Position numbers and translations under genes: made by a program. This document shows positions 1 through 63,442 of a DNA stretch of 64,000 nt, one piece after another; positions within the stretch are counted from its first letter, which is position 1; the number at the start of each line of letters is the position of its first letter. The notes beneath the pieces were generated by a model. The model was given only the letters and a program-made list of their open reading frames with translations, had not been told where the DNA came from and searched no databases. The stretch comes from Enoplolaimus lenunculus (taxonomy: Eukaryota). Where the stretch lies: positions 558,001 through 622,000 of the forward strand of contig JASANG010001737.1 of the NCBI GenBank assembly GCA_030248215.1. The letters are read 5' to 3'.

Positions 1-1032
1 AGTAATAAATCCAGCTCAGAAATTATGTGTATCTCTAAGAGGTAGCTAAGGTTAGCTTAAACTAAAAATGCGTAAGATATCAAATTTGTCTAAGAGTAAA
101 CCAACCTGTTAGTTCAGTTAATCTAGAAATTTAGTTTAATACTGCTGGATTAGCTTAAGCTTAAATCGAGCTAGTTTAAGGTTTTCGAGCGTAAGATGTG
201 GTAGCTGACGGAAGTAATGTTTTAATAAGTTTACAAAGCATAGCTTAATACCCTTGCAGCAGTTTGTACCCAATGAAGCTATACGCAGAAATTCTCTTCA
301 AGGACATCTATAAACCTGTTTGAAACGCAAAATCTACGCAGGTACCGGGCAACAGGTGTGTAATGGGTTGTTACTTAACACCCCTAGAAAACTATACGGG
401 TGCCGGTGACACCCCTGACAATCAGCAAATCTCTAAAATTTCGGGTTGGAATTTACAATAATTTCCTCCGTTTCTAAGTTAGCTACTGCGGCCCTATTTT
501 ATAGTTCAGAAAATAATCGGTTCCACGTCGTTGAATGTATGGAAACGTGACGTATCGAATGCTGCCCACCGGATCTACCGGAAACTAAACGTTTAGACCG
601 AATGTTCTTGCTAAAATTGTGTCCAGCTCTTGTTCCGATCATTTATTTAAGTTATTTTGCAGCTTGCTGAAACTGTTTTTGAAGGTCATCAAAAATCTTA
701 AAAAATCACTATTCTAATCCACTGCCCATGTTTAGGGTTTAATCCTAATTTCTCGGGGGGGGGGGTGCTATATAAGGGGACGGATGAAAAAGATATATCC
801 TGTCTCGAAATTTCTAGATTCATCAGAAAATGGACATTCAGAATGTTTTAAGCAACTTTCTGGATAAATCGCTATCAAACCAGACATCTCTCGTTGGTTT
901 AGCTTGTTCGCCAAAAAGCTTACGTTATCTTCTACGATGCCGAAATGCTGGCTACTCCCATGGACCTTGAAAAAGGTCGAGACCCGCCTCTGATCAACAA
1001 CTAGGATCACTGCTTATAGGTCCGTGTTTCAG

Positions 1033-1209
1033 GTATATGCCCATATTTGCCGGCGCCCGTAGACGGAACAGTCACACATCAGTCAAATCCTATCTATGAG
1101 GGTAAACGTGAAGTGTTCAGCTGTAACAACGGCTACACCTTAGTCGGAGCGTTATCTTCGCTTTGCTTGTCCACAAGCAATTATGATCAGCCGATACCAG
1201 AATGCAAAA
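1033..1209 (+). CDS. CCP exon 1 (177 nt, phase 1-1)
   Basis: tttcag|GT..AAA A|gtaact; ICPYLPAPVDGTVTHQSNPIYEGKREVFSCNNGYTLVGALSSLCLSTSNYDQPIPECK. Confidence 0.9.
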
Positions 1210-4200
1210 GTAACTAAACAGCCTTTATCGAATATTTAATGTTGTGAAATTATAGCCAATGTTTACTTTTAGGACCGTAACAGTAGATAAAGCATATTTC
1301 TAAACCTAAGCCTAAGCGTTGAAAAAAGTGTATTTCTAAACTTAATACAAAGCCTAACTGGTAATCGTTGAAAAATGTGTGTTCCTAAGCCTAAGCGTAA
1401 GCCAAAGCGTTAAAAAAGATTATCCCAAGCCTAAGACGAAGCAAAATATGTAGTCCAGCATCTAAGCCTCCTCTTTTACAGACCTATCAGGAACCGACAC
1501 GGCCCTAAAAGTAACATGGGCCAAAATTATTATGTATAAAGACCAGAGTGCAAAGTAACGAACGGCCTTTATCGAGAGTTTAATTTTGAAAAATTGTTTC
1601 ATACAGATTCTTTCGACTTATAAGGTGTAAGTTAAGCTTCAATTTGGGAAGATGTTTTCTAGGAAGATTATGAATTGGTAAATTCAAATTTGGCGCTGCT
1701 GCATACAGTTTGTGTTCTGTGAAAATATTGTAAATAAAGTAATGCTAGAAAGTTGCTTAAAATATATATGGAGCATTCCAGTTTAAATTATACAGATTGG
1801 AAGAATTAGTTTTGAAATATGCAATAGACCAATAACCTACTGTTTTACTCAAACCAAATTTTTCGTACGTACCTGCATGCTCAAATATAGGGATAACATG
1901 ACGCATATCTGATCAAAATTTTACCACCACTATTTTCAGACAGTTATTGGCCCATGTAACGATCAGGGGCGGAACGTTTTTCTGTGTGACTAGAATAGAA
2001 TAAGCTTAAGTTTTACTCTAATTGTTTTGCTTTCATTCATTTCTTTCAGTTCGATGCCCTAATTTTCATACGCTATACAGCGCAACGGTTCCAAGTGACG
2101 GAAAAAGCTTCTACGAAGGAATAACGATTACTTATTCGTGTGATGCTGGGTTCACTATGTACGGTAGTCCTACGTCAACGTGTCTACCGGACGGAACCAT
2201 GTCACATCCGCCGCCGATATGTAAAAGTAATTCTATTTCAAATGTGCTTTTTGCGCCAAAACGCACACGTTAAACATCAATTGCTTTATGCAGTAAGAAC
2301 ACGTATTCTCAAATGTGTGTAGCACTTATCACCAGTTAACAATAGGTTGTCAAGCGAAAGTTGAACAAGCTACAAAGGTTAAGCTCAGATTACAAACAGT
2401 ACTGATAATTTGCAAAATAAACGTGCCAAATTTTGAAGCTGTCCATTGGCTGGTTCCATATTTATAAGGCCGTTGGTCAACTGATGATGTTTCAAACCTA
2501 AAGAAGTATGACAAAATATGTATGTTTTAAGGATTATTCACTGCCTCCGCAAGGGTACCCGAACCCGCTCCCCAAGCATTCGAGATTGGACCCCTTTTAA
2601 CACCGCAGCAGCTCCAAAAACGAAAGGCAAATCAGCCGAGCTGCGATACATAACGGCGTAAGGCCTGACAAGCGAATTGATCGAGAAGCAAAATAAATGC
2701 AAATAATCGCACGTCGGGTCAATTTTACCCATGGCTCTCGGAAGCCCGAGACCTTTTTCCCTAGTGATAAGCAAGGCGGTTGAAGCGGAAGTGAGCAGCT
2801 TCTCACACCGTGAAGAAATTAACCGTTTTCGAAATTAGACGTACTGATACTGAATTTTAATTGTAATCAACGTGACTGCTAATATGCAACACTAAAATAA
2901 TCCTCATTAAACTTTTCAAGACTGTGTTCTAATTTGCATATATATGCTGTCTCTTGTTTATATTTGAAACAATCATAACAATAGCTGAAACGCTGCTCAA
3001 AATACGTATGTGGGACATTATAATATTAATTTAGAAAACTGATTTTTTTTCAGAAAATTGCACTGTTACCGATATAAACTATGGTACGGTAACTACGAAC
3101 CCAGTTGGGCTCACAACAATTTCACCTCCTTCAACGGTAACTTATCAATGCGACGCTGGTTATCACTTAGTCGGTACAAGTGCACTGAATTGTCTCCAGG
3201 GCGGTATTTACGATGATGCGATCCCGTCGTGTAAAAGTAAACAATCTTGTATTATACCGTAACTTTGATTCAAATTAAATCTTTTCAGTGGCGCGTGATG
3301 GGTGCAGATTTGCTGGGAAGAACTACGTTTTGGTGCATCCACCCCCCAAATTTACCATCTACTTGCTAAAACTCAACACGCAGTACACACAACATCAGTG
3401 TCGGATATGAATAAATTTGGTTAAAAAAAATTGTGCGCATGAGTCAAAAAACTTGCAAGCCTAACGAGATAGGAACCGAACGCAATTGTAGTGCTAAATC
3501 TTAATAGCTTTGGGAACTTTTTAATATCGCGAGCGAATCGGGCGAAAAAGCTCAAACAGTACTGCATCCACATTTGTGCCATACGGATTAAGGAACATAG
3601 ATTCAAACTGGAGGCCGAATTGCCTAAGAAACCCGGGGATCGAAGCGAGCGATAAGCCAAAGGCAATTTTGCTATTAAGCACAGCGCTTGTATGAAACCA
3701 TTACGATAGAACCTTTGAAGCACAACCGAGACGACACGGTGAATTTTATATTGCAAGCTTTGCACGCGAGAAGCTAACCGCATTAAATTTTTCATCATTG
3801 AACTAAAGTATGACCAAATAACTGGATTGGCACGTTACCAATCGTCTAGAAAAGCGCCAAATCGGTTATTTGATCATAACCATCAAATGAGGTCATGAAA
3901 AGTTCAAATATGCAAAAAGTTTCAAAATCCATTGATTTTTGCGCATATTCAAACCGGTCGATTGAGAATAACAAAAATGACCCAAATTTTGAAATCACTT
4001 GTTTATGACGAATCGACATCAATTCGTCGTATTACAACTGGTCACCCAACCATGTCCTAAAAGCCTAAGAATAAATGTAATAAGCATAAGCCTAGAACGT
4101 AATCGTAGACCTATTCCCGCATTACAAGTTGTCGGGTGACGAAGCATTAAGGGACTAGTTATCGAGCGACGAAATGTTGTAATACCAATTCTGAGACTAT

Positions 4201-7200
4201 ATTTTCGGCTACGAAAACTATCTGTTATTGCAAAACTGTATACTTTTTACAGTAATCTGCCACGATCCGGTGACAGTTCAGTTCAGTTCATTTGTAACCA
4301 GCTCGAATCCTGTGTATGACGGCCAAACCGTGACTTATACTTGCGATGCGCATTATTAGACGTCATACACAGGATTCGAGCTTGTTACAAATGAACCGAA
4401 TTGAATTGTCACCGGATCGTGGCAGATTACTGTACAATGTATAAACAGTTCTGCAATAACAGATAGTTGTTATACTTTATACAGTAATCTGCCACGATCC
4501 GGTGACAATTCAGTTCGGTTCCTTTGTAACCAGCTCGAATCCTGTGTATGACGGCCAAACCGCGACTTATACTTGCGATGCGCATTATTAGACGTCATAC
4601 ACAGGATTCGAGCTTGTTACAAATGAACCGAATTGAATTGTCACCGGATCGTGGCAGATTACTGTACAATGTATAAACAGTTCTGCAATAACAGATAGTT
4701 GTTATACTTTATACAGTAATCTGCCACGTTCCGGTGACAATTCAGTTCGGTTCCTTTGTAACCAGCTCGAATCCTGTGTATGACGGCCAAACCGCGACTT
4801 ATACTTGCGATGCGCATTATTAGACGTCATACACAGGATTCGAGCTTGTTACAAATGAACCGAATTGAATTGTCACCGGATCGTAGCAGATTACTGTACA
4901 ATGTATAAACAGTTCTGCAATAACGATAGTTGTTATACTTTATACAGTAATCTGCCACGTTCCGGTGACAATTCAGTTCGGTTCCTTTGTAACCAGCTCG
5001 AATCCTGTGTATGACGGCCAAACCGCGACTTATACTTGCGATGCGCATTATTAGACGTCATACACAGGATTCGAGCTTGTTACAAATGAACCGAATTGAA
5101 TTGTCACCGGATCGTGGCAGATTACTGTACAATGTATAAACAGTTCTGCAATAACAGATAGTTGTTATACTTTATACAGTAATCTGCCACGATCCGGTGA
5201 CAATTCAGTTCGGTTCCTTTGTAACCAGCTCGAATCCTGTGTATGACGGCCAAACCGCGACTTATACTTGCGATGCGCATTATTAGACGTCATACACAGG
5301 ATTCGAGCTTGTTACAAATGAACCGAATTGAATTGTCACCGGATCGTGGCAGATTACTGTACAATGTATAAACAGTTCTGCAATAACAGATAGTTGTTAT
5401 ACTTTATACAGTAATCTGCCACGATCCGGTGACAATTCAGTTCGGTTCCTTTGTAACCAGCTCGAATCCTGTGTATGACGGCCAAACCGTGACTTATACT
5501 TGCGATCCGCATTATTGGACGTCCACAAACGGAGTGCTCACGTGTCAATCTAATGCACTATACGATATATCGGAACCTGTGTGCAAAAGTAAATGTTTCT
5601 AATGATGATTTTCACATACAACCAATAGTAAAGCTGGAACGCCGAACATACGTATTAAATATCGGACACCATTTGAGCGGTGTGTTCTATTCTTAAGTAC
5701 ACTGGTTGATTTCTGGTTTTAAAATTGCGTGCGTAAATCTGGTTAAAAAAATTAATTGTCTAATTTTTAAAATCCTGGTTCCGTCCGGAAAACAATGTTA
5801 CTTCTGTGTTGATTGGGGGGACAAATATGTTCCAAATTTTGGCCAATGTAAAGAACAGGACAGGAACAGTAGTATAAGCGTATTCCTAAGCCCAAGCCTA
5901 AACCTAAGCCTAAACAAAAAAGTAGTCTAAAGTTTAAGCTAACTCCATTACAGGCCCGCAAGAAAACGATCCGGGCCTGTTCCATACATGGGCCCAAATT
6001 TTGAAGGATAACTGTCCGGTCAAGATTTTCTTGTTTTGTTTTGGTTTGGTTACCTAAATTAGGTTCTGCTATATATTTCAAGTTGCTAACCGCTGCCTTT
6101 CAAGTAACATGGATCATGTTATGCGGCCTTCGAAAATCCAATCACAACAAGCCTAAAGCCTAAAATTTTGTCCTGAAATGTACGGTTCAGATAGTAAATT
6201 GAAAATTTCATTTACCACAAATCAGACGCAAAATAAAGTGGATGATGCATTATCGAGTGATGTATTTTCAGGAAAATGTTACCCGGACACCATAGCATAC
6301 GGAAACCACGTGGACCAAACGAATCCAGTAATTGAATCGACTACTGTGACGTACAGCTGTACTGATTTGACCACTCACGTTCTCATTGGTGACCCTGTAC
6401 AGCTGTGCCTCAACGATGGATCTTTTAATGTTTCGACGCCTTCATGCGAACGTAAAGTTTAAGATTGTGATCTTGCACTGTTTCTGATCAATATATATCA
6501 GGGTTCAACCGGAATTTCTGTTCCGGCCGGAAATCTTACAAAAATTCAATTCCTGTTCTTGATCCTGTTGCTGCATTGAGCGATGCAGGAGCCGGAATTT
6601 TTATGGTTTTGTGGCAAATTATGCGTAATCATATATTGAAAATTTTGTGTTTACAAAATTGTTATTTCGACATGAGTGTTTTTCCAATGCTTCAGCCCTG
6701 TTAATAAATTGTTTCTGATGTGTTTTCGCAAAACTTGATGATTAAAAAGCTCAAAATTAGCGTACGCCAATTTTGGCAGGTTTTCTAAAAACTCCAACAG
6801 TAATTCGGCGATAAAGACAATTTCAAATTCCTGTTCCTGTTCCTGTTTCGGTCCCTGCAAAGAAATTCAATTCCTGTTCCTGTTAGGGCAAAATTTACTA
6901 TATTTGACCACGGTACAAATATATATATTTGTCCCGTGGTTAACTACTTATTTAACACGGGTAAAAACTTTTAAAGAGGGGCAGAAAAAGATTTCAGATT
7001 ACTTATAATCAGGTCGAAAATTGTCTAATATTGTCATAATTTTCCGAGGGTTCTTCTGAGCACTCCTGCGCCCTTTGGCTACGATCCTACTACAGATATA
7101 CCACAACAACCAGATCATGTGAATTATTGAACAAATACCACGTTTATCTCTTGCGATACGTCACGAATGACCTTGCATTATACCCGATTCAAACCAGCAA

Positions 7201-10200
7201 TTCCAGCTAGACTACGGGCTGCTTATGGTGCGATCAACTCAGGCATCGCCTGAATATGCATAGAGGGAAAAATGTGCATTTATAGAAATCTTCAATCTTT
7301 AAACTTAAGCTTGTTTTAAGTCGAACATCCAGTTAATCCAGCGGATGTCATCAGACGTCGACGTAGGTGATGTCTCTGCAACCAAACCAATATCTCGCTT
7401 ACCAGCGAACAAGCACGTAACTCAACGCTTATGTACGTTTGACGTCTGCGTTGTTTTAGAATCTCAATTTCAAACTAACTTCGATCATTAAAAATTGAAC
7501 TTTTAGCAATTTGTCCAGTTCCCATCGCAATTGCCAACGGATCCCGAGTGGTCAGCGGCGAACCTCGTCTTGCCGGAATCACTGTCCGCTATCAATGCGA
7601 CCCAGGGTTCCATCTTGTGGGTCAAGCGATACTGAATTGTCTGTCAACTGGAGCATACGATAGTCCAGCTCCTGTTTGTAAACGTAAGGGTGGCGCGGTA
7701 TTATGCAGGGAGCATATTTCCAAATACGTATGGCATATATCACCAGTAAGCGATAAGTTTTCAAAGTGCCAAAATTCCAAGTGCGGGTTACAAGTTTGGC
7801 GTAAAAATAATACAAATTAAAAATACGAAAACTGTGGCTAACTTCGACGATCACTAATCGTTGGCCCGAAAGCCTATGAACCGTATTACCAGCCGGGTGA
7901 TAGTTGCTATACTCATTTGCCAAAACGAGCCCAGAAATCCTATTTTTGAATGAAGAAAGTTTGGCGGGCACATGTTATTTTATGGGCGTCCAAAACTGGG
8001 TTTGTAAAAGAGTTAGGTTTACATTCTACAGTACATTTTTTGCTTAGGTTTAGGTTTAGGCTTTGGCTTCAGGCCTAAGAACACACTTTTACAAAGTTTA
8101 GGCTTAGGCTTAGGCTAAGCAATATGTTTAAACTGCGGCCCTAAAAGTAACATTGACCACGACGAAAATTTGACGTTTGTAGCTGTTTATAATGATACTG
8201 CATCGTTGACGCAAGTATGACAATGCTTTTTCTTCTCACTTCCACCAAATTTCGGTGCAAATCGTTTACAAAGTTATTAACGCACCCACTAAAAGTCGAG
8301 TCGCACTTGAGCGCTGGTAGGAGCCCCCTAAATAGCACAATACACGACAAGAACAATAATCTTTGCAATTGGCTGACGGTGGTGAAATGAAAAATAATAA
8401 TTGACGAATGAATATGCGCTGATAAAATAAAAAATATTTGTTTCAGGGATTTGTCCGGATCCAGCTCCATTGGCCAATGGCAGCGTTACGGCGTCCACTG
8501 ATCCGTTGTATGACGGTCAAACTTTGAATTACGTCTGTAATTCGACGCATTCATTGGTTGGTTCTGCAGTACTGACATGCAACGCTGACGCTACTTATGA
8601 TAGTATGCCACCTGTGTGCAAACGTAAGTACTTTCAAATTGTTTAAGCCTTTAGGGTGGCGCCATACTGGGTGCGGTGCCGTCGGATACCATCCCATCCG
8701 TCAGCGTCCGTCACCATACGGTATCGTACGTGTCTAGTTTATGTACGATACCGGACGGTGACGTACGGTGCGAACAATGGCGCCGGACGATGACGGATAG
8801 TACCGGATGTAGTCAAAAGTATAACACTACCTTTATCAGAATTTTAAAATAGTTAAATTGCAACTATAAGCCAAAGTACTATTTAATAATAAATTTGAAA
8901 ATAGGAATTATTCGAAATTTAAAGTCACTCAATGGTGTGATAAAGGTAAAATGAAATTTATATTTCAAATTAAATTTCGGATTACTAGTTGTCGGTCGAC
9001 GAGTTGTCGGACGACAAATTCTTATGATCACTAGCGTATCCAGAGGAAGCGGAGTAGTTTTTTTTGTGATAAAAACGGTACGGTTTTTTACCTTACAATT
9101 TTCACCCCCAAAAATTTTTTGGTAAAAAATACAATATATACCCTCAGAATTTTTTTGTGATAAGACCTTACAATTTTTCCCCTTAAAAATTTTTTGGTGT
9201 TAAAATGATAAGGTCCCTGCGTTACAATTTTTCTCCTAAAATTTGTTTGGTGACAAAATGATAAGGTCCCTCATAACTTACAATTTTTGAGTTTCATCAC
9301 ATTTGCCTGCGCGTTACCCCGTCAGAAATTTTCGGGTCCGACTCTGGTCGTGATACGGTTAAGTACACCCCAAGTACAGGGCAGCCTTTTGCTTACTCAT
9401 ATCATCAGCTACTGTACAGATATCGCTGCACCCAGCACCTCTAAATTTTGAGAGAATGTGTGAGCTTTCGGGCTGCACAAGAATTTTGGGATTATATCCG
9501 GGCGGAAGGACTCCGTACAGGATTGTATCGGCATTTGGACGTACCTACACCACTCGTGGGCCACAAATTTTTCGATCATAAGCTAAAAGTTGCCGCGGGT
9601 AGACGGCGATAAAAACTTTTAGACTTATAGCTACTGTTGTGTTTAATATTAAATAATTGAGTCATAAGTTGCCGAGCATGTCTCGACCATCAATCGAATT
9701 AAACCTATCGCAACCATGTCTTCAGTTGAAACCGTTTACAGACTTCGCTGCAGGAAGCTACGCTAAACGTAGCTTATTTGATGAAGTCAAAAAATATACA
9801 AAATGACAACCGCGTTTGTCTTTAGAGACGAGTGTAATCCCGTCACTGGGTGGTAACGCAACGAACCACGACAGCCAGCCAAGTGTTCGAAAATTTATTA
9901 CGTTTTCTATCATTAACCTAAAGCTGAAGCCAAATATTGATCATCTTGACTCCATTTTCAAAAACTTAGCGCAAGAGATTGAGTTTGACCGGTATCAGGA
10001 AATGCGTCCGCCGACAGCTCGTCAATCGACAACTTGTAAACTGAAATTTCATCGAATCCACAAGTAATACATCATTATGTCTACACTTAGACCAAGGATT
10101 ACGCTTTGGATTATGCTTAGATTTATTCATAAACTTTAATAAGACACTGTTGTGCGACACGTTGTCGGGCGACGAATTGTTGTAGATTTGTTTTTAGCGA

Positions 10201-16200: not shown

Positions 16201-16406
16201 CGCTTAGGCTATGAAATATGGCTTATACTACTGCTACGGCTCTGTTCTATACATTAACTCAAAGCCTGTAGCTGGCCAACTGGTCGTTGCAACGATTTTG
16301 AAACTAATTTATACATCGAATTTACACACGTCTGTATATTTTGCAAATGTTCCGCTTAATATTTTGTATTTGGCCACATTTTGGCAAAATGCCAGATTTG
16401 ATTAGC

Positions 16407-16445
<39 letters not shown>

Positions 16446-40400: not shown

Positions 40401-43400
40401 TCTACCCTAACACATATTTTCCGGTAACCTTACTCGAACGCTTGTTACAGAGCGTTTGTGACAGCCACGCGATAGCCTTACCGGATGACATATTTTGTGG
40501 TAAGAGAAAATTATATATTGTGAACGACCCATAAGCAATAGGGATGGTAGTTAATTTGAAGGCCTTATGAATTGCTTAGGTTCAAAGTTCGACTTGGAGA
40601 AAGACTTTAGACCGTTAGGTCATCTTACTAACACATATATCAAAAATGATTAATACCTTTCGTCGAATTGTTGCGGCACGTATTGGTTTGGGAAAATTTT
40701 ACACAGATCCGAGCAATTAATGTTCAACCAAAACATTTGCAACAAACGTTTAACCCGGAACTTGTATAATGTAACAGTTGGGGCTAACGGAGTCATTTAA
40801 GTAAAACAATAATCAAAGCTTTCTTCACCAGTTGCGCACATATAACGATCAGAGACGAAACGTTTTTCTGCGGCGACGGCAATAGAGCAAAATTAACGTT
40901 TAGACTAATTTTTTGCTAAGACTAATCATCTTAGGTATAAACTCACTTTTATTCTTCAGTTTAGGCTTAGGCTTAGGAATATGCTTTATACTATTGTAGC
41001 GGTCCTACACGATACATTGGTCCCCAGTTGTAATATTAACCAATGAGAATATTAAACTGAATCAATATTTAGACCCAGACCAGATATTTGACCACAACAT
41101 GTCCGATTTGTTACAGGATAACACGCTATGCAACGCAACTGCAGCAGGTATACAATTGTTTACTGTGCTACATTTCACTGGTTTACTGGTACAAGGAATG
41201 CAAGCTGGTTGTGTTGTTGCTAATTTATTTTCAATGAAAACAATCATTTCAGGCTGGGCCTATGCGTGCTTCTCGATCGGTTTGTTTTCAAATCGCTTTT
41301 TAGGTTTACAATTGGCTTAATTGTATATCAAAATAATATTTTATATAAACAGAATATCTCTTGTGTTTTACGTAATCGGCGTTGTGTTTAATTTGATTGC
41401 TTTGTGCTCACAGCAGTTTAACCCCTTCTCACATTGAGTTGCCTGTAGGCAACTAAGCGCAGTGTATATACGTTAAATAGTATATATCGTACAGTGTTTA
41501 TCAATTGCAACACGTATCCATAGTACTAAACATCACGTCAAGCTCCTATAGCTGAGTGGTGATGGTATACGCCTCCCACTCCAATCACTGGAGTTCGAAT
41601 CCTAGCATAAAAGTAGGTCTCAGGAGAAATAGAAAATATTCATGTGAGAAAGGGTTAAGATAAAACAATTGCGCTGAAAGCCTAATAGCATCTCAAAAAC
41701 ACTTTTATATTTGTGGGTGGTAAACAAGGATGGTTTCGTTGAAAATTTTATGATGTAAAAAAGTTCGGCTGATATACACTTTCGATTCGACAAATTAAAG
41801 ATAAACGCTTTAGGTTTCGGCTTAGGAGCAAAATTTTGTATAAAGCCTTATGTTAAACTCAAAATCAAAATTTAGTTTAGTCTTTAAGCAAAAGTGAAGG
41901 CTTAGGTTGATGTAAGGCCTTTTCTGAAACGTAAGCCTAAGCCTGTGGAAGGAATGTGTACAATGATAAATGTTTAGGTAATGGCTCACGATCAGAATGC
42001 AGTATTAAGCGTTAGGTTTAAGCTCATGATCGAAAATTAGGTATAGACTTAAACAAAGATTTACGCTTAGGCTTAGGTAAGGCCTTTTCCGAAATATAAG
42101 CCTGTTGGAGGAAATTGTACTCGATCCAAAGTTCCATTATTAATTTGTATCTAATATAAATAATTGTTTATATTTTGTTGACTGTTTTAAGCTGTTTCAT
42201 CGTTATGCACAACGCTAACGGCTGTTTATCATTTCGAAGACTATCGGGCGGACTTAAGGTATGAAGTATATTCGGCTGACCGAGTGCATACATGGGCATA
42301 GAACGTTTCGCGAAACTTGTATTTTAGCGAAGGTATATTTCAGTCTCACGTTACCGCTGGTTCGGCTTGCACAGAAAATATCCGCACAATTTCAATTTTC
42401 CGCGGACACTATAGAGTACAGCGATAACTGTGTACGGACATAAACATTAGCTAGCTACCGTGTCCGGACATAGTTGTCGTTTTTTGACGGACACATTGGA
42501 GTATCTAAAAATCGTTCGAACATTTTATGTGCAGGACGAACCAAGCGTAACGTGGGACTGACATTACTTTCAAATATATGTATTATTTATTATATTTTAA
42601 TTTATTAAATGTAATTATTGTTGCGTTTGGCTATTTATGTTGGACAAACCAACAAAGAGATTGAAACCAAAACTTAGTAAATATTAGTAAAGTTTTAGGC
42701 ATTGCTTCGTATTAACGTAGATAAGCCAAATAACCTAGGAACAAATATATAGTTCAACCAACACAGATCGAAATATTTCACTTATTGGTTTATCCCAGTT
42801 AACTGTAGGGGCATGCGCACTAAGCCTAAGCCTAAGCGTTAACATAGACCTAAGCGTAAGTGTCCTAAACACAAATTTGAACCTAAGTATAAGCCCGAGT
42901 CTTCCAGTGTATAAGTCTACAGTTTTCTAGTCTCCCAGCGCGCATGCCCCTATAATTATTATTCCCATAAATTCATAGTAACTAGAATCCTTCTTGCTGT
43001 AAGGGTTGCGCTATACGTGTCGTACGGCGCCGTTCATCACCACACGGTATCGAACGTGAGTTATTCGCGTGCAATACCGCTCGGTGGCACACGGCGCCGG
43101 ACGGTGACGGATGGTGCCAAATGTTGACGGACTGCGCTGGACGCTGTACGGATGGCGCTGGACGTCATCTAAAGTATAGCGCTACCCTTACACACCTTTC
43201 TGATTGGCCATAAATAATTGAAAAGAAATTTGAGTTTGGTGTTCGAAACCTTAGAAAAGAGTTATCACTGACTTTTAAATCGTGTGACAGTCTCCACGGC
43301 CAATGTACTTTTAGGGGCGTAACAGTAGATTATGCGTATTCCTAAGCCTAAGCCTAAGCGTTGCAAAAATGTGTTCCTAAGCCTAAGCCTAAGCCTAAGC

Positions 43401-46400
43401 CTAAAGCAAAAAATTGTAATCTAGAATCTAAACTAATCTAGAATCTAAACCCAGTCTTTTATAGACCCACGAGAAACCTTTACGCCTGTTAAAGTAACAT
43501 GGGGCCGTATCCACAGTACGCCCCTATTTAGTAAATATTAAAAACTTAGCAATTTATTCGACAAGTATCTTACGAACTAAAAATGGCTATTGTAGCTGTT
43601 GGATCAATATTGACAACGTAACTTTTGCTGCGACTTTGATTCCTGCAAGCATCCTGGCGTACGCGGCGTTAGCATTCGCCGAAGCTGCAGGGATCCATGA
43701 AGAACCAGTAATCCCGATGCAAAATGTGATTCGAAAAGTTTCAGCGACGTAATAAACTCGTTAAAATATTTATTTTTACCATTTAATGACCGCAAATTGT
43801 ATTTAATCCACTGGTAATAGCATAGAGAATCTAAAGGGGATATGAGTATAAATACACTATAAATTCCAATGAATTGATCAATGAACTCAGAGAAAAAATT
43901 AGTTATGTGTTGTTATTTTTGAGTTAATAACAGTAAATATTACCTCACACTGAGCTGATTTAATTTCGGATGAGTTGATTAATTAACTCAGAATGAGGTC
44001 AGTCAATTCAGAATCCGGAACTCTGAAAGACCTGAATCAGAGCTCAGACTTCTAACTGGGTTCTTCTCATTCGGAATTAAATTCAACTCAGTGAAATTTA
44101 CAGTGTACCTTACTAAAACACGTTGGTAATATCAAGAGTGGATTATCGCTATTTATAACAAGAGTGTGCAACTGGGCAATTCTGTGTAGAAACGATTGTA
44201 TCCGGCACGCGTTGCGTTTTTGCCCAACCCATTTATTTCGGGGGCGGGTACAACCGGTGCGAACCATGGCACTTTATGTATGCGCCGTCAAACATGCTCC
44301 GCTTATAGTTTAATTTAGGGGTATTCATGTAATAGCGACACCCCCTGTAAACAAGGCAGGGTCGGCCAATAAACGCAACACCCGGTGGTACATTTGGTAC
44401 CATGTGGGAACCCAAGAGTTGCACAATCTTGTATCATGCACTCTTGGTAATATAAACTGTAATCGAGATCTTGGCCCATATTCTCAAATGCGTATAGCAC
44501 CTATCAGTTAGCGATAGGTTTTCAACCTGGCGAAGTGCTGCAATTGCAGATCTCAAAATTGGTACAGCAGTAAAGGCAACTCAAACGCAAACAATGCGCT
44601 GAATTTCGAACCTCACTATGCGCTGGTACCAAAGTTACAGGACCTATCGTGAACTGGTGATAGGTGCTACACACATTTGAAAATACGGGCTCTAGTCTAA
44701 AAAATTTTAAAAAACAACTTATATCTGCACGAAAATTAAAAATATATTTCAACCAGTTAATTTTTGTGTCAAATATACTTTAGGTTATGTGTTCCAGATA
44801 TATCATTTACCGTACTTTCTTTTCATCAAACCTCATTCAAAGCCGCTTCAACCATTTTACAGTTTGTTTATTAAAGAGTCTAAATGCGATTTGAAAATGG
44901 TTTTACTTTCAGATTTTGTCAAAAATGGCTAATAATTAAAGTTGTACTTAGCTACGCAACTTGGCTTGTTGGCGCAATATCGATGTTTTATCGTCATGGC
45001 GTGTTAATCGCGGTTGCATCAACGTTGCATGTAGTGCTTGGCATTGTGATATTTGTTTTTCATATTACTGAAGAACCACGAGTAAGTTCGGCTGGCCCAT
45101 GTTTAGTTATAAGGATTTGCTCACTGTGTGACAACAGACACGTAGGTCGGTAAACTCAGAAACTGAGAGGCTTAACGCTAGCTTAGGCTTAGGATAAAGA
45201 TTATGTTTACGGTTTAGCAGTGTCGTGCTTAGCGCCCCTCATATCTCGTAAATGGAGGCCTTCAGATCCAAGGAACCCCTTGCAAAATTTGGCCAATGTA
45301 AAGAACAGGGGCGAAACAGTATTATACGCTTATTCCTAAGCCTAAGCCTAAGTCTAAACCTAAGCCTCAGCGTAAGGTCAGTTCCGCCTGATACACGTCA
45401 CTACATTTAATATTTCACATAATTATACTTGAGTCATTCAACGCATTAGCCAGATGTCAAAAACTTGGCCGGTGTGGAGGGAATTTGATTAACTTTGGGC
45501 ACCCTACCATTGGCTTTGGGCAGCTCGCAACGTTGACTTTGGGGGACCTCACGCCTCAAGTATCGCATTTCGCTTAAGTTTAGACTTAGACTTAGATTTA
45601 GGTTTGCCCGTTTGTTAACAGTCATGTAATTTTGTCGATTTCAAACGAATAAGAATCCGCTGACAAAGCTAATTTACGCATTAGCAAATAACTACTCTTA
45701 CCCGGGGCGGTCACAGGGGGAGCGGATGGGACGCGGTCGTGCCCCCCAAAAATTTTTCACAAACAGTTTAATTTTTTAGAATAAATGTTATTTTAACACA
45801 TGGTCTTAAATATAGAAAAATAAAATCTAAAAATCCTCAAAAATATCCTGGGACAGCCAATAACTTTTACTGGTAACTTTTCGAACGGTATTTTATACAC
45901 AGCACCTATGACCAGTTAACGATAGCTCTCGATAAACAGCTCGTATATTGGCAAGTATTAGTCTAATCAAACGCTAATTAACTAACTGGTACCTTGTTCT
46001 AAAGACAGACTAAAATATAATCCATACCATTCATCAAAGCTCATTAGCTTCCTTGAATGTTTTGGTTCTCAAAATATGGCTCTCACATAATTTTCGCCCA
46101 CATTTTACGCGTCGGAAGCATAAGAAGCTTGAGCCTAAATCTTTGCAAGCGTTTATCTAAGCCTGCGCTTGCCTTTAAATCGTAATGTATTAATAAATGC
46201 GGGGAAGTGAACAAGAGCCGTTTGCTTGTTTTTACGACCAAAATTTTTCAAGTTTAGTTTTGTTTTTGGCTTAAAACTAGCGACTTCGTCAATACGGACA
46301 TTTTGAAAAGTATATAATTACTAAATTTGCTTCTGCTAACCAATGTCTTAAAATGTTAAAATAGAATTTTTCAAATTTAAAAGTTTGCCGTTTAAAGTTG

Positions 46401-46877
46401 ATCCGCGTTTTCGATTACGTGCAAAAATGGATGATCGCTCGTTAACAAACGTGTGTGCAGCTGTCGAATTTTGTGCTGTACAAAATGTACCACCGGCAGT
46501 TGCGTTTTTGGCCAACCTCCTTGGGGTCAAAATTGTCACGAGACTGAAATTCATATTTTATTGTATTACACTGAAATGTTGTCTGCTCATGTTTTTATCA
46601 AAATTTAATGTGGAATAAGTCTAATATTGACCGTCACCCCAATTAACGGGAGTTGGTCAAAAACACAACGAGTTCTGGTACATTTTGTACCACGAACAAC
46701 CTAGCAAGCAGAGTCGCACACTCTTGTATTATAATCATCAACTCTTGTTTTTAGGTATTGGCTTTTTGGATTCGTACGCTGCGTAAAATTGCCAAAAAAT
46801 CGTGGTTGACATTTTTAGAAGACGTTCTCAAAACGTATTATCGCGGAGGCGTTATTCCGTCAGAATTGATTGGTTAA
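1033..46877 (+). CDS. Multi-exon gene (5'-partial, 43 exons, ~6.66 kb CDS): >=31 sushi/CCP domains + short stalk + class B2/adhesion-like 7TM receptor without GAIN
   Basis: Exons joined manually at AG/GT sites give one continuous frame with compatible phases. CCP C-..-C-..-G-..-C-..-P-x-C pattern occurs 31 times, then seven hydrophobic segments with a TM3 Cys and ECL2 CW; stop TAA at 46875-46877. Confidence 0.85.
1254..1522. mobile_element. GGCC-ended MITE with internal (CCTAAG)n
   Basis: Ends agccaatgtttacttttagg / ctaaaagtaacatgggcc; TSD gaaattat / aaaattat. Confidence 0.8.
2050..2226 (+). CDS. CCP exon 2 (177 nt)
   Basis: tttcag|..|gtaatt; RCPNFHTLYSATVPSDGKSFYEGITITYSCDAGFTMYGSPTSTCLPDGTMSHPPPICK. 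Confidence 0.9.
3054..3236 (+). CDS. CCP exon 3 (183 nt)
   Basis: tttcag|..|gtaaac; NCTVTDINYGTVTTNPVGLTTISPPSTVTYQCDAGYHLVGTSALNCLQGGIYDDAIPSCK. Confidence 0.9.
4253..5411. repeat. Five ~232-bp tandem units, each a truncated forward copy of CCP exon 4 (TGG>TAG) plus an inverted copy
   Basis: Acceptor+TAATCTGCCACG recurs at 4253, 4485, 4717, 4948, 5180 and 5412; the sequence between copies is the reverse complement of the exon 5' half plus upstream intron. Confidence 0.95.
5412..5588 (+). CDS. CCP exon 4 (177 nt, type C), the only complete copy in the array
   Basis: atacag|..|gtaaat; ICHDPVTIQFGSFVTSSNPVYDGQTVTYTCDPHYWTSTNGVLTCQSNALYDISEPVCK. Confidence 0.85.
5841..5994. mobile_element. GGCC-ended MITE
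   Basis: ggccaatgta..tacatgggcc; perfect 8-bp TSD caaatttt. Confidence 0.85.
6272..6451 (+). CDS. CCP exon 5 (180 nt, type A)
   Basis: tttcag|..|gtaaag; KCYPDTIAYGNHVDQTNPVIESTTVTYSCTDLTTHVLIGDPVQLCLNDGSFNVSTPSCE. Confidence 0.9.
7507..7683 (+). CDS. CCP exon 6 (177 nt, type B-like)
   Basis: ttttag|..|gtaagg; ICPVPIAIANGSRVVSGEPRLAGITVRYQCDPGFHLVGQAILNCLSTGAYDSPAPVCK. Confidence 0.9.
8447..8623 (+). CDS. CCP exon 7 (177 nt, type C')
   Basis: tttcag|..|gtaagt; ICPDPAPLANGSVTASTDPLYDGQTLNYVCNSTHSLVGSAVLTCNADATYDSMPPVCK. Confidence 0.9.
9826..9890 (+). pseudogene. Decayed 5' fragment of a type D CCP exon
   Basis: tttag|AG then TSVIPSLGGNATNHDSQPSVR, resembling exon 8 ICLSPPAVGNATNQVSQSNVP; first Cys lost and similarity then ends. 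Confidence 0.55.
10198..10380 (+). CDS. CCP exon 8 (183 nt, type D)
   Basis: ttttag|..|gtgatt; ICLSPPAVGNATNQVSQSNVPVIEDIYYVYTCDTGYYMIGNDTLECLITGSFDKKPPVCK. Confidence 0.9.
11420..11596 (+). CDS. CCP exon 9 (177 nt, type C')
   Basis: tttcag|..|gtaagt; LCSDPAPPNNGSIVLSSTPIFDGQTASYKCDQNYSMVGNAVLTCTDSGQYDYQPPVCK. Confidence 0.9.
11555..12180. repeat. Triplication (~225-235 bp unit) of the exon 9 3' end + donor site, with an inverted fragment in each unit
   Basis: CAGACAGTGGTCAGTATGATTACCAGCCTCC..AAAC|GTAAGT starts at 11555, 11780 and 12015; acgcttacacacaggagg is a near reverse complement of the exon end. Confidence 0.9.
12715..12897 (+). CDS. CCP exon 10 (183 nt, type D)
   Basis: ttttag|..|gttagt; ICPQPPALNNSSKQVNKPGAPVIEGVNFVYVCDERYHMLGNATLECVITGQYDKPPPTCE. 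Confidence 0.9.
13328..13764. mobile_element. hAT-like non-autonomous element
   Basis: cagg..ccctg ends with imperfect TIRs; perfect 8-bp TSD ataaaagc. Confidence 0.8.
13824..14000 (+). CDS. CCP exon 11 (177 nt, type C)
   Basis: ttttag|..|gtgagt; ICPAPVPIANATFTTSSTPVYDGQTIQYSCDTNYWLQGNATLTCQHDGTYDFSEPDCK. Confidence 0.9.
14808..14987 (+). CDS. CCP exon 12 (180 nt, type A)
   Basis: tttcag|..T|gtatgt; ICYPDSINYGSRNDSTTPVIEGSTVTYSCVDPSTRAILGEAVLLCLDSGLFDYPTPSCE. Confidence 0.9.
15376..15552 (+). CDS. CCP exon 13 (177 nt, type B)
   Basis: ttgcag|..|gtgagt; FCNDPTPVGNATVTVSGSPIFAGVNATYECMPGYYLIGQNVLICQPNATYNSVEPICY. Confidence 0.9.
16407..16444. repeat. (ATT)n microsatellite ~20 bp upstream of the exon 14 acceptor
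   Basis: Uninterrupted tattattatt.. run. Confidence 0.95.
16466..16642 (+). CDS. CCP exon 14 (177 nt, type C)
   Basis: tttcag|..|gtaagt; ICPHSLPINNGSYTVTSSPIYENQQVTYSCDANYWMIGASTLICSSDGSYHTAKPVCK. Confidence 0.9.
17356..17535 (+). CDS. CCP exon 15 (180 nt, type A)
   Basis: tactag|..T|gtaggc; MCYPPDIDYGYRIHSSTPVIENSTVTFYCNDTTVRALNGEMMLVCLPSGQFDRDIPSCE. Confidence 0.9.
17896..18072 (+). CDS. CCP exon 16 (177 nt, type B)
   Basis: tttcag|..|gtaagt; FCTEPVQVGNATVVVDSRPIFAGVNATYQCVEGYHLIGQDVLTCQPNAKYNSNEPSCY. Confidence 0.9.
18707..19002. mobile_element. Harbinger/PIF-like fold-back MITE (relatives ~32963-33244 and ~60503-61271)
   Basis: TIR agccctattcatacgtgcaag / cttgtacgtgtaaatggggct; TAA on both sides. 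Confidence 0.7.
19053..19229 (+). CDS. CCP exon 17 (177 nt, type C)
   Basis: ttttag|..|gtgagt; ICPTPVNVGNASYVSTSTPVYDGEKVTYTCDLNYWMLGEAMLTCQSDGTYTTKEPVCR. Confidence 0.9.
19334..19596 (+). mobile_element. piggyBac-like MITE, copy 1
   Basis: TTAA|CCCTTTC..GAAGGGG|TTAA; near-identical copies at 41422-41654 (inverted) and 63181-63442. Confidence 0.85.
19946..20125 (+). CDS. CCP exon 18 (180 nt, type A)
   Basis: ttacag|..T|gtaagg; ICYPEEIDFGFHNDSTAPVIDGATVPYRCDDPTTRAVQGADILTCTPTGSFDHSTPSCE. Confidence 0.9.
20330..20592 (+). pseudogene. Decayed type A CCP exon duplicate split by a MITE
   Basis: VPSALAV*TEAVVTC before the insertion and CTTSGPFDHPTPLCE T|gcaagc after it (donor GT>GC); following intron bases resemble those after exon 18. 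Confidence 0.7.
20382..20542. mobile_element. hAT-like MITE (relatives near 49467, 51724 and 53644-53812)
   Basis: TIR caggaccgtagcca / tggctgcggacctg; 8-bp TSD cctgcgta / cctgtgta. Confidence 0.75.
21417..21593 (+). CDS. CCP exon 19 (177 nt, type B)
   Basis: tttcag|..|gtaaat; FCNNPAEVGNATHVVSSYPIFKGVTVTYQCVTGYHMVGESMLTCQSNATYDYPVPSCY. Confidence 0.9.
22343..22542. mobile_element. GGCC-ended MITE with (TTAGGC)n core
   Basis: ggcccatgta..cacataggcc; perfect 8-bp TSD aacaccgg. Confidence 0.85.
22598..22964. mobile_element. CAAGAG-ended MITE
   Basis: TIR caagagtggatgat / atcatccactcttg. Confidence 0.75.
23031..23210 (+). CDS. CCP exon 20 (180 nt, type C)
   Basis: ttttag|..|gtatat; ICPEATVIDNANQVVVTGAPVYDGRQVKYTCDTDYFMLGVAALTCNSEGFYDSAVPICK. 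Confidence 0.88.
23585..23764 (+). CDS. CCP exon 21 (180 nt, type A)
   Basis: ttacag|..T|gtaagt; MCYPDQTAHGYHVNSTDPVIDGSNVTFYCDDPTTRAIRGESVLKCLPSGQFDHPTPSCE. Confidence 0.9.
24639..24815 (+). CDS. CCP exon 22 (177 nt, type B)
   Basis: tttcag|..|gtgagt; FCNSPATIANGSLTVQSTPIFQGVTATYECATGYFLVGQSVLTCQADAVFDVDVPTCK. Confidence 0.9.
25117..25293 (+). CDS. CCP exon 23 (177 nt, type C')
   Basis: ttttag|..|gtgagt; ICPNVTPVANGSVFASSNPVYSGQNLTYSCNVTHSLVGVTVMTCTDDGNYTGLAPVCK. Confidence 0.9.
25367..25614. mobile_element. CAC..GTG-ended AT-rich MITE (copies ~12350-12600, ~14098-14346, ~29824-30072)
   Basis: Four near-identical ~250-bp copies in both orientations; TA flanks at this copy. Confidence 0.8.
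26286..26468 (+). CDS. CCP exon 24 (183 nt, type D)
   Basis: ttttag|..|gtatta; ICPSPPMVGNASYTVSQPGVAVIEGVYYVYKCAAGWLMLGNDTLECLITGHYDKRPPTCE. Confidence 0.88.
26866..27152. repeat. 49-bp minisatellite, ~6 copies, each with GTGACGTCAC
   Basis: Unit ctcgtgacgtcacctaaacgaagcagacaagtatagaccatcagaccat repeated nearly identically. Confidence 0.95.
27546..27722 (+). CDS. CCP exon 25 (177 nt)
   Basis: ttccag|..|gttagt; ICSDPERLANGMWSATRIPIIEGDTVSNDCYNGYFLVGADVQLCQSSGMFSQPNPICY. Confidence 0.9.
28318..28644. mobile_element. CAAGAG-ended MITE
   Basis: caagagtgga..gcactcttg; flanks gtctaag / gtgaaag. Confidence 0.7.
28859..29038 (+). CDS. CCP exon 26 (180 nt; only CCP with the canonical Trp)
   Basis: tgccag|..|gtaaaa; ICPDPANIDHGQFRTSSTPNIMNVTANYHCDSGYFLVGQPRLKCQRNGTWNSFETPICK. 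Confidence 0.9.
29287..29359 (+). mobile_element. tRNA-like sequence, probable tRNA-derived SINE head or pseudo-tRNA (CGC at the anticodon position)
   Basis: 73 nt; acceptor stem GGCCGCG/CGTGGCC+A, A-box-like TGGTGTAACG, B-box GTTCGATTCC; anticodon and T stems imperfect. Confidence 0.6.
30143..30316 (+). CDS. CCP exon 27 (174 nt)
   Basis: ttatag|..|gtatga; ICEPQNIDDGSFNVSRTPLIEGRTVTYSCDQQRHLVGNKVLSCLADGRFDHGPPECS. Confidence 0.9.
30580..30743. repeat. 28-bp GC-rich minisatellite, ~6 copies
   Basis: Unit agggataggtcgcggcgggtgcgaaacc. Confidence 0.95.
31283..31396 (+). CDS. CCP 28, first half (114 nt)
   Basis: ttacag|..A|gtaagc; ICPTPDPVSFGSFTQSSVVITRNVTVNFTCDLGMVLT. Confidence 0.85.
31982..32104 (+). 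CDS. CCP 28, second half with an inserted Cys-loop (123 nt)
   Basis: ttttag|GT..G|gtaagc; (S)FDCGNSNSESSCSSRIHSSNLLTLTCLANGEYDNAYPSCV. Confidence 0.8.
33863..34033 (+). CDS. CCP exon 29 (171 nt)
   Basis: ttttag|..|gttagt; CKTDLSLTHGFVTYSHDPMISNGTVSFTCDPKYKLIGDPNATCVAREYDRNPPVCR. Confidence 0.9.
35278..35469 (+). CDS. CCP exon 30 (192 nt)
   Basis: ttctag|..|gtacga; ICDPPQAATNRLNSVFWSTNNTVEILDGDSIEFHCYDEYLLVGAQLLTCQSDHNYDNEEPQCK. Confidence 0.88.
36061..36245. mobile_element. GGCC-ended MITE
   Basis: ggctcttgttactttt..aaaagtaacattggcc; TSD gaaaatag / gaaaataa. Confidence 0.8.
36387..36575 (+). CDS. CCP exon 31 (189 nt, last CCP)
   Basis: atttag|..|gtaata; ICFGHPNDVSNGDLTVEREQGFVIEGLTITTDCDENYELDGNAVATCTSNGLLDPSVANCTY. 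Confidence 0.85.
37732..37748 (+). CDS. Stalk microexon (17 nt, phase 1-0)
   Basis: tttcag|AAAAGAAACCAAGGCTG|gtaagt; (K)KKPRL. Confidence 0.6.
37808..37843 (+). CDS. Stalk microexon (36 nt, phase 0-0)
   Basis: acgtag|..CAG|gtcagt; RENPQSLENSEQ. Confidence 0.5.
38690..38726 (+). CDS. Stalk microexon (37 nt, phase 0-1)
   Basis: Long pyrimidine tract ttttcag|..G|gtatgc; SPHSKAVNDILG. Confidence 0.6.
39257..39376 (+). CDS. Stalk end + TM1 (120 nt, phase 1-1)
   Basis: cgtcag|..G|gttagt; LRTYRTNELALSDTSCDLIEQISNVSTLPSFSCSIAFLA. Confidence 0.7.
39652..39718 (+). CDS. TM1 end + ICL1 (phase 1-2; alternative in-phase donor at 39730)
   Basis: gttcag|..CG|gtgcta; (V)LILRAERFAVPLLEDLLLTDD(R); supplies the phase change needed for the next exon. 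Confidence 0.6.
39740..40156. mobile_element. GGCC-family MITE with an internally expanded composite repeat
   Basis: (cctaag)n interleaved six times with cgtatggatgagcctatt-like spacers; ends catgggcc. Confidence 0.8.
40222..40321 (+). CDS. TM2 exon (100 nt, phase 2-0)
   Basis: tttcag|..AAG|gtaaaa; VWHLSRLLQNIVEVGLLLTHVLILINVDPTTFK. Confidence 0.8.
41117..41279 (+). CDS. TM3-ICL2-TM4 start (163 nt, phase 0-1)
   Basis: ttacag|..G|gtttgt; DNTLCNATAAGIQLFTVLHFTGLLVQGMQAGCVVANLFSMKTIISGWAYACFSI. Confidence 0.8.
41422..41654 (-). mobile_element. piggyBac-like MITE, copy 2
   Basis: TTAA|CCCCTTC..GAAAGGG|TTAA; reverse complement of 19334-19596 with an internal deletion. Confidence 0.85.
42192..42258 (+). 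CDS. TM4 end-ECL2 (67 nt, phase 1-2)
   Basis: tttaag|..AG|gtatga; (A)VSSLCTTLTAVYHFEDYRADL(S). Confidence 0.75.
43002..43188. mobile_element. AGGGT-ended MITE (relatives ~8653-8833 and ~21238-21397)
   Basis: TIR agggttgcgctatac / gtatagcgctaccct; TA flanks; GACGG-rich core. Confidence 0.7.
43298..43506. mobile_element. GGCC-ended MITE
   Basis: TSD gtctccac / gtatccac. Confidence 0.8.
43596..43748 (+). CDS. ECL2 CW-TM5-ICL3 (153 nt, phase 2-2)
   Basis: ttgtag|..AC|gtaata; CWINIDNVTFAATLIPASILAYAALAFAEAAGIHEEPVIPMQNVIRKVSA. Confidence 0.85.
44133..44446. mobile_element. CAAGAG-ended MITE with 7-bp TSD (P-element-like)
   Basis: caagagtg..cactcttg; perfect TSD gtaatat; body matches ~57933-58229. 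Confidence 0.8.
44473..44691. mobile_element. TIR MITE (relatives ~2300 and ~33616)
   Basis: gcccatattctcaaatgcgtatagcacctatc / gataggtgctacacacatttgaaaatacgggc. Confidence 0.7.
44913..45081 (+). CDS. TM6-TM7 exon (169 nt, phase 2-0)
   Basis: tttcag|..CGA|gtaagt; FCQKWLIIKVVLSYATWLVGAISMFYRHGVLIAVASTLHVVLGIVIFVFHITEEPR. Confidence 0.88.
46755..46877 (+). CDS. Terminal exon: helix 8 + C-tail + stop
   Basis: ttttag|VLAFWIRTLRKIAKKSWLTFLEDVLKTYYRGGVIPSELIG* (TAA). Confidence 0.8.
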   Translation, partial: VLAFWIRTLRKIAKKSWLTFLEDVLKTYYRGGVIPSELIG

Positions 46878-46878
46878 A

Positions 46879-46884
46879 AATAAA
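46879..46884 (+). promoter_or_regulatory. Candidate polyadenylation signal AATAAA (others near 46986 and 47093)
   Basis: AATAAA immediately after the stop codon; common by chance in AT-rich DNA. Confidence 0.35.
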
Positions 46885-63180: not shown

Positions 63181-63442
63181 CCCTTTCTCACATGGATATT
63201 TTCTATTTCCCCTGAGACCTACTTTTATGCTAGGATTCTAACTCCAGTGACTGGAGTGGAAGGCGTATACCATCACCACTCAGCTATAGGAGCTTGACGC
63301 TCGAGCCCGAGGGGCTCTCACGTCTTGTGGTGATTTAGTACTATGTATACGTGTTGCAATTGTTAAACACGGTACGATATATACTATTTAACGTATATAC
63401 ACTGCGCTGAGTTGCCTACACGCAACTCAATGTGAGAAGGCG
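63181..63442 (+). mobile_element. piggyBac-like MITE, copy 3
   Basis: TTAA flanks; near-identical to 19334-19596. Confidence 0.85.

Follow-up and report, generated by a model that had tools for sequence, protein, structure and literature searches.

A predicted gene joining at least 31 sushi domains to a divergent class B-like seven-helix unit in Enoplolaimus lenunculus

This locus raises the question of whether a long array of sushi (CCP) domains and the hydrophobic exons that follow it belong to one gene and, if so, what kind of membrane protein would result. Within the window (the whole stretch of 64,000 nt that was analysed; 39% GC, with introns rich in repeats), 41 predicted exons between 1033 and 46877 on the plus strand join into one open frame of 6548 nt, or 2181 codons (amino acids), with a single stop, the TAA at 46875-46877. 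All 41 acceptors are AG and all 40 donors GT, and the longest exon is 192 nt. This agrees with the initial annotation, which had placed every exon under 200 nt and had described CCP exons running in phase through a short stalk into hydrophobic exons. The exon chain is a prediction from the sequence, and the CCP counts are minimum values, as the gene extends 5' of the window. The gene starts outside the window, upstream of 1033. In the part of the window upstream of that position the CCP profile detects no CCP exon, and no leader exon is seen by eye among the open frames. Between 46900 and 64000 the same profile detects no CCP exon, and no gene is evident by eye among 29 stop-to-stop frames of at least 70 residues.

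A search of the window with a CCP profile built from 11 clear exons located 32 exon positions with CCP-like coding sequence on the plus strand, from 1033 to 36575.

CCP exons 1-8, plus strand, 1033-1209, 2050-2226, 3054-3236, 5412-5588, 6272-6451, 7507-7683, 8447-8623 and 10198-10380: one sushi domain each, phase 1-1.
CCP exons 9-10, plus strand, 11420-11596 and 12715-12897: identified by the profile and Pfam.
CCP exons 11-22, plus strand, 13824-24815 (starts at 13824, 14808, 15376, 16466, 17356, 17896, 19053, 19946, 21417, 23031, 23585 and 24639): the A-B-C unit four times over, from the tree and dN/dS.
CCP exons 23-27, plus strand, 25117-25293, 26286-26468, 27546-27722, 28859-29038 and 30143-30316: identified by the profile and Pfam.
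CCP domain 28, plus strand, 31283-31396 and 31982-32104: split by a phase-1 intron, with an insertion carrying two extra cysteines, unlike the other 30 domains.
CCP domains 29-31, plus strand, 33863-34033, 35278-35469 and 36387-36575: the last ends at a phase-1 GT donor, as do the others.

Each of the 32 exons is bounded by AG/GT and is in phase 1-1; together they encode 31 domains, domain 28 being split across two exons. The initial annotation had likewise counted at least 31 CCP domains in 32 exons. One-domain exons in phase 1, like the sushi domains themselves, suggest an animal gene. The Pfam Sushi family (PF00084), which it had named as a check, scores above the curated cut-off in 28 of the 30 whole-domain exons, the two below it being those at 6272 and 14808 (17.4 and 15.0 bits against 20.7). 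The first half of domain 28 (31283-31396) is a weak match to the same family (15.1) and the second half (31982-32104) gives no match. The four invariant cysteines are present in all 30 whole-domain exons. The predicted fold of one CCP domain, calculated with the other 29 as the alignment, has a pLDDT of 92.6 and superimposes on the top SCR structures (selectin, CR2, CD55 and factor H) with TM-scores of 0.80-0.91.

A conserved tryptophan precedes the last cysteine of the sushi/CCP domain, according to the available text of PMC10518620. At this position the 30 domains carry Tyr (18), Phe (9), Met (1), Leu (1) or Trp (1), the canonical residue thus being absent from 29 of them. The sole domain with the canonical tryptophan is the one at 28859, and the CCP fold is still predicted despite the loss of this residue.

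Five pooled pairs of paralogous CCP exons give a dN of 0.31 against a saturated dS of 2.64, indicating purifying selection and an array maintained as a coding gene. A three-domain unit, A-B-C, is present four times in domains 11-22. In a tree of the CCP exons the B, C and D types each group as a clade that is supported or nearly so (99/97, 94/92 and 99/98), with the A type weakly grouped (53/64). The ectodomain as a whole comprises ∼1870 residues ahead of the predicted 7TM, is acidic (pI 4.5) and contains 45 N-glycan sequons.

These features bear on the possibility of a true complement receptor or regulator that would bind host C3 fragments and signal through its own 7TM, so joining the roles of CR1 and a C3aR-like receptor. 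The size and build do resemble those of CR1, whose 30 CCPs are arranged in long homologous repeats (PMC10518620, available text), and domains of CR2, CD55 and factor H are among the fold matches. However, the fold match is generic, with selectin and β2-glycoprotein I among the top hits, and most complement regulators ranked below SEZ6-like, CSMD-like and selectin-like proteins in the profile search. The near-complete absence of the CCP tryptophan and a repeat unit of three domains rather than seven also argue against this role, which is considered very unlikely. The earlier description of the ectodomain as complement-receptor-like is therefore borne out for fold and size, but a tie to complement is not found, and 29 of the 30 domains lack the CCP tryptophan.

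Several repeats overlap or adjoin the CCP exons. A 232-bp tandem array at 4239-5523 (5.5 copies, 98% alike) lies just upstream of CCP exon 4, and its unit consists of the acceptor and first 34 codons of this exon, a stop and the same 89 nt repeated in inverted orientation. Ahead of exon 4 there are thus five fold-back pseudo-exons with their decoy acceptors, with truncated CCP copies at 4253-5354; the array is either a recent local amplification or an assembly artefact. A second tandem at 11555-12124 (225 bp, 2.5 copies) has a unit that opens with the 3' end of CCP exon 9 and its donor, from which decoy donors may follow that exon. A short dispersed MITE-like element, its ends inverted and its core made up of CCTAAG/TTAGGC hexamers, is abundant in the introns (for example at 5841-5994, 36769-36951, 38853-39056 and 39791-40076) and also occurs downstream of the gene. 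Short elements at 29288-29360, 41545-41610 and 63235-63300 appear by eye to be tRNA-derived; Rfam gives no match in the window at its gathering thresholds.

Nine exons between 37732 and 46877 carry the frame past the array to the stop. Splice sites were scored with a matrix trained on the 32 CCP exons, with decoys drawn from 30 kb of CCP introns (218 open pseudo-exons). The best-scoring decoys are 35177-35206 and 29954-30029 (18.7 and 19.8, respectively); the former, of 30 nt, is open in phase 1-1, lies 71 nt before the CCP exon at 35278 and could be a real micro-exon. Two exons are predicted between the array and the first transmembrane exon.

37732-37748, plus strand: micro-exon of 17 nt, phase 1 to 0, splice score 22.5.
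37808-37843, plus strand: stalk exon of 36 nt, doubtful or optional, phase 0-0, splice score 0.1, the frame being open without it.

The micro-exon has the best splice score in the gene, above all 218 decoys and all 32 CCP exons. The frame stops early if it is left out, and the shift from phase 1 to phase 0 that it introduces is exactly what the TM1 exon requires. Because it has an acceptor, a donor is required upstream, and the last CCP exon offers a free one 1156 nt away. The predicted stalk from the last CCP cysteine to TM1 is 36 residues in length, or 24 without the doubtful exon. The introns of the junction measure 1156, 59 and 846 nt and are no longer than those of the array (301-2175 nt, median 926), leaving little room for a gene boundary.

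Such a boundary would be needed if the locus contained two adjacent genes, one for a secreted, factor H-like protein of CCP domains only, made by reading through the exon at 36387, and the other for a 7TM protein with a very short N-terminus. Read-through of this exon adds 40 residues up to a stop at 36695-36697, with an AATAAA at 36851, and would yield a secreted form ending at 36697. A methionine just before TM1 could serve as a separate start, and the junctions of the fused model are predictions. However, the last CCP exon ends at a GT equal in phase and position to those of the other 31, and the micro-exon not only needs a donor upstream but also brings the frame back exactly. Two AATAAA signals per 2.1 kb of AT-rich DNA are also close to the level expected by chance, as estimated from base composition, and a terminator and a promoter would have to fit into 1156 nt that consist mostly of repeats. 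An arrangement of two genes is thus improbable, and the predicted exon chain indicates that the CCP array and the 7TM exons are probably fused in one gene.

The remaining seven exons encode the predicted membrane unit.

38690-38799, plus strand: end of the stalk and TM1; splice score 16.5, reached by five of 218 decoys; hydropathy 2.6.
40222-40321, plus strand: ICL1, TM2 and the start of ECL1, from the exon chain and splice scoring.
41117-41279, plus strand: TM3 with the putative disulfide cysteine, ICL2 and the first part of TM4; the top three Atlas hits are 7tm_2; weak donor.
42192-42258, plus strand: end of TM4 and start of ECL2 with its tyrosine; weakly supported, splice score 7.4.
43596-43748, plus strand: ECL2 Cys-Trp, TM5 with its proline, and ICL3; pattern found in four of 150 simulated windows.
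44913-45081, plus strand: TM6, ECL3 and TM7; splice score 21.8, above all 218 decoys; pattern found in one of 150 simulated windows.
46755-46877, plus strand: predicted helix 8, an exon of 40 residues up to the stop, with AATAAA downstream at 46879 and 46986.

A Kyte-Doolittle scan (19-residue window, every third position) gives seven peaks of 2.5, 2.0, 1.6, 1.5, 1.8, 1.7 and 2.5 in this region against a maximum of 1.2 in the ectodomain. The seven hydrophobic helices reported previously are thereby recovered, TM3 and TM4 being weakly hydrophobic (1.5-1.6). A 17-residue hydropathy of at least 1.5 is reached in five of the seven TM-region exons and in 14% of 196 decoy frames; the exons at 42192 and 46755 have a value of 0.4. 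Lysine and arginine total 15 in the four inner segments against three in the three outer loops, with six more in the stalk, on the predicted outer side. A prediction by AlphaFold for the TM3-4 exon alone is one unbroken helix (pTM 0.37).

Of the 218 decoys, 118 score at least as well as the exon at 41117, 193 as well as that at 42192 and 158 as well as that at 43596, and an alternative path that skips 42192-42258 and uses an acceptor at 43550 also keeps the frame open. The ECL2 'Y....SCW' motif spans the predicted junction 42258/43596, its tyrosine depending on the weak exon 42192-42258. A loose pattern from the TM6 Trp to the TM7 Gly occurs once in the window, in the correct exon, and one from the ECL2 Cys-Trp to the TM5 Pro also occurs once. 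The rarity of both in simulated windows (one and four of 150) overstates the case, the patterns having been written from a consensus after the sequence had been seen. A third pattern, a regular expression for TM3, missed the real TM3 exon, matched 44% of the simulated windows and is given no weight.

Pfam 7tm_2 (PF00002) matches none of the seven TM-region exons when these are searched singly, the exons being short and divergent. In the ESM Atlas, the top three hits of the TM3 exon are 7tm_2 clusters (0.84, 0.82 and 0.82; recognition 2701), which is a lead only, as the scores are below 0.9 and one third of shuffled proteins reach 0.8. Frizzled clusters score lower (0.77) and make up 22% of the members in the second hit; for the TM6-7 exon the Atlas gave no usable hit. 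The Frizzled clusters could point to a membrane part not derived from class B but Frizzled-like or cAMP-receptor-like (both of the same clan), and fewer than seven helices would be present if the weak exons were wrong, three exons having weak splice scores and the path without 42192-42258 keeping the frame. Against a different origin, the top three Atlas hits are all 7tm_2, the spacing from the TM3 cysteine to the Gln/Gly is 21 residues and a phenylalanine occupies the signature position; against a smaller bundle, TM1, TM2, TM6 and TM7 lie in exons with good splice scores. Either departure from a class B-derived seven-helix unit appears highly improbable.

The available part of PMC8584163 gives TM3 Trp, TM4 Pro and TM7 Gly as near-invariant in adhesion and secretin receptors, and ECL2 Tyr and Trp, TM6 Trp, TM7 Gly and TM2 Asn as also conserved. 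Counterparts of the latter five are found in order in the predicted 7TM, as is the TM3-ECL2 cysteine pair, which would form a disulfide. All of the class B2 motifs picked out by eye in the initial annotation are likewise present in the order stated, that of ECL2 across a predicted exon junction. Of the three near-invariant positions, however, the TM7 Gly is kept and the TM3 Trp and TM4 Pro are lost. The three vertebrate adhesion GPCR signatures described in the same source all fail. In TM3, LHxxxLxxFxW is represented in register by I, Q, V, F and G, with Phe alone identical and the Trp replaced by Gly; in TM4, GxGxP is absent, no proline being present in any register; and in TM7, FxxxxxxQG retains Gly 7.50 with Gln changed to Leu and Phe to Ala. 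With respect to the class B HETx and PxxG motifs (PMC10166269, available text), the TM3 Glu position is Gln, the register of the TM2 His being inferred, and neither Pro nor Gly precedes the TM6 Trp. No asparagine follows the proline of TM5.

The hormone-binding domain of secretin-type (class B1) receptors (PF02793) matches none of the exons. A search for GAIN/GPS between the last CCP and TM1, covering all 30 open frames of at least 25 residues in 36576-38800, found no GPS-like pattern and no relevant Pfam hit. Since at most 36 residues separate the last CCP cysteine from TM1, a GAIN domain is taken to be absent and the 7TM is not classed as an adhesion GPCR. The assignment as an adhesion-type 7TM is thus upheld for the class B-like landmarks, with a lead to 7tm_2 from the Atlas, but not for GAIN/GPS or for the three vertebrate signatures. 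From its sequence features, the 7TM is likely to be a degenerate unit that descends from class B GPCRs (adhesion/secretin-type) and does not itself belong to the adhesion family.

On balance, and with somewhat more in favour than against, the product of the single gene would be a surface receptor whose rod of at least 31 sushi domains stands on a short stalk over a class B-derived seven-helix unit; GAIN-less and uncleaved, it would serve in long-reach recognition or adhesion. At a length of 3.6 nm per CCP domain (PMC10518620, available text), the rod could span up to ∼110 nm if extended. Its ligand might be a repeated protein or glycan presented by another cell, by the matrix or by a microbe, and multivalent binding through the repeated A-B-C units might provide avidity. 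As there is no GPS, the chain is proposed to stay whole; binding would then be passed to the membrane unit as a pull or as clustering through the stalk of 24-36 residues, and activation would not involve the unmasking of a tethered agonist. A GPCR-like bundle would be held together by the TM3-ECL2 disulfide and helix 8. The changes at the HETx, PxxG, TM3 Trp, TM4 Pro and TM5 Asn positions suggest an atypical output, which could be weak, constitutive or G-protein-independent and not the canonical class B switch.

The same changes could instead mean that the fused protein has a 7TM that no longer signals, a relic used only to anchor, traffic or cluster the rod, making the product a tether or endocytic receptor of the CR1/CSMD type. 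Such a reading accommodates the Gly for TM3 Trp, the Gln at the TM3 Glu position, the TM4 without GxGxP, the TM5 without Asn after its Pro, the missing TM6 PxxG and the LG in place of the TM7 QG (motifs as given in the available parts of PMC8584163 and PMC10166269), together with a C-terminal tail of 47 residues containing two Ser, four Thr and two Tyr. Nevertheless, seven segments, the cysteine pair, the TM6 Trp, the TM7 Gly and a basic helix-8-like stretch are kept over seven exons, which is more than an anchor needs. The motifs moreover come from vertebrate receptors, and invertebrate adhesion GPCRs often fall outside the known subfamilies (PMC6900090, available text). A dead relic is accordingly regarded as unlikely. 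For the signalling receptor, a broader and tentative proposal, on the doubtful side, is that it represents a lineage-specific class in which an uncleavable CR1-sized rod of at least 31 mostly Trp-less sushi domains on a class B-derived 7TM lacking GAIN, tethered agonist and activation motifs still signals by force or clustering, for self/non-self or cell-contact recognition. Nothing in the sequence analysis separates an adhesion from an immune role.

Searches for homologues of the membrane unit used three TM exons, each searched singly. In databases of proteins of up to 2000 residues (the predicted protein has 2181), the TM6-7 exon gave 54 candidates and the ECL2-TM5 exon 38, none of them at E ≤ 10. 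The sole match of the TM3 exon among 1.84 billion representatives, P0081, is a tandem-repeat protein matched over six short stretches and was rejected. In the PDB, the TM3 exon matched 17 designed repeat proteins at 3 bits per stretch, also rejected, and the TM6-7 exon matched no sequence. Pattern matches to the TM exons in metagenome contigs were confirmed in none of 600 and none of 362 cases. The CCP profile identified 73 generic sushi proteins among 7990 candidates scored, with PF00002 in none of them; its top match, P0001, is a generic sushi array that contains the tryptophan and is not an orthologue. None of these searches yielded a 7tm_2 protein. Public annotation includes predicted invertebrate proteins with a few sushi domains, GPS and 7tm_2.

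In the literature, covered as titles and the starts of abstracts with most subscription papers outside that coverage, no sushi-array receptor with a class B-like 7TM was found described. The word 'sushi' does not occur in the main texts, as available, of PMC12716839, PMC4302439, PMC2396169, PMC2246102 and PMC6900090, the first four being the papers on the repertoires of amphioxus, Ciona, Amphimedon and choanoflagellates. Motif look-ups in one supplementary file each of PMC8584163 and PMC12716839 gave no matches, and the available text of PMC6208332 mentions sushi genes and GPCRs separately.

Adhesion GPCRs (class B2), including invertebrate members with shuffled ectodomains (amphioxus, sponge and choanoflagellate), resemble the predicted protein in their very large modular ectodomain on a class B-like 7TM and share the TM3 Cys, ECL2 Tyr and Cys-Trp, TM6 Trp and TM7 Gly. 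In contrast, the protein predicted here has no GAIN/GPS or tethered agonist, has lost the TM3 Trp and TM4 Pro, and has a visible ectodomain of sushi domains only. Human ADGRA1 (GPR123) has a very short N-terminus. It is GAIN-less, in the sources as available, and is alike in this respect, but its 7TM is recognisably that of an adhesion GPCR, whereas here ∼1870 CCP residues precede a far more divergent 7TM. The CSMD proteins are single-pass; CSMD1-3 resemble the array in having 26-28 CCPs, as given in the material available. Relative to CR1 and CSMD1-3, the part of the present protein that is seen contains no CUB domain and has Tyr or Phe replacing the CCP tryptophan. The GABA-B receptor R1a, a class C receptor, differs in having two CCPs and its own ligand-binding domain. 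Its CCP domains nevertheless provide a precedent for such domains on a GPCR, where they serve partner binding and trafficking (PMC9083331, available text).

CR1 (CD35) is alike as a glycosylated rod of about 30 CCPs with higher-order repeats (30 CCPs, with four seven-domain repeats), but is single-pass (PMC10518620, available text), whereas seven passes and a three-domain repeat are predicted here. Novel cysteine-rich domains are a known pattern on invertebrate adhesion GPCRs, those of amphioxus being shuffled (PMC2246102, available text). In the Ciona LDLRR-GPCRs, lineage-specific shuffling has put two to ten tandem copies of one cysteine-rich module onto a 7TM, the usual neighbouring domain has been lost and the TM region has diverged (PMC2396169, available text); theirs, however, are LDL-A repeats in far shorter arrays on a rhodopsin-class 7TM. 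Botryllus fester is an invertebrate chordate recognition protein that also combines a sushi domain with several TM segments but, compared by description, has one sushi domain and three predicted TM segments, with no GPCR likeness reported in the available text (PMC3549757). Regulators of complement activation of the CR1/factor H type, which bind C3b/C4b and have decay or cofactor activity, are single-pass or secreted, in contrast to the multi-pass C-terminus predicted here.

In adhesion GPCRs the GAIN domain links a large ectodomain to the 7TM, and the extent of signalling without its tethered agonist is debated. A protein that lacks the usual activation motifs and carries ∼1870 sushi residues on a stalk of 24-36 residues would offer a natural system in which to test for GAIN-independent coupling. 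Should the 7TM be dead, the protein would represent an unusual reuse of the GPCR fold as an anchor. Complement-type arrays would in addition join the ectodomains known on class B-like receptors in invertebrates, where they may have a role in recognition or immunity.
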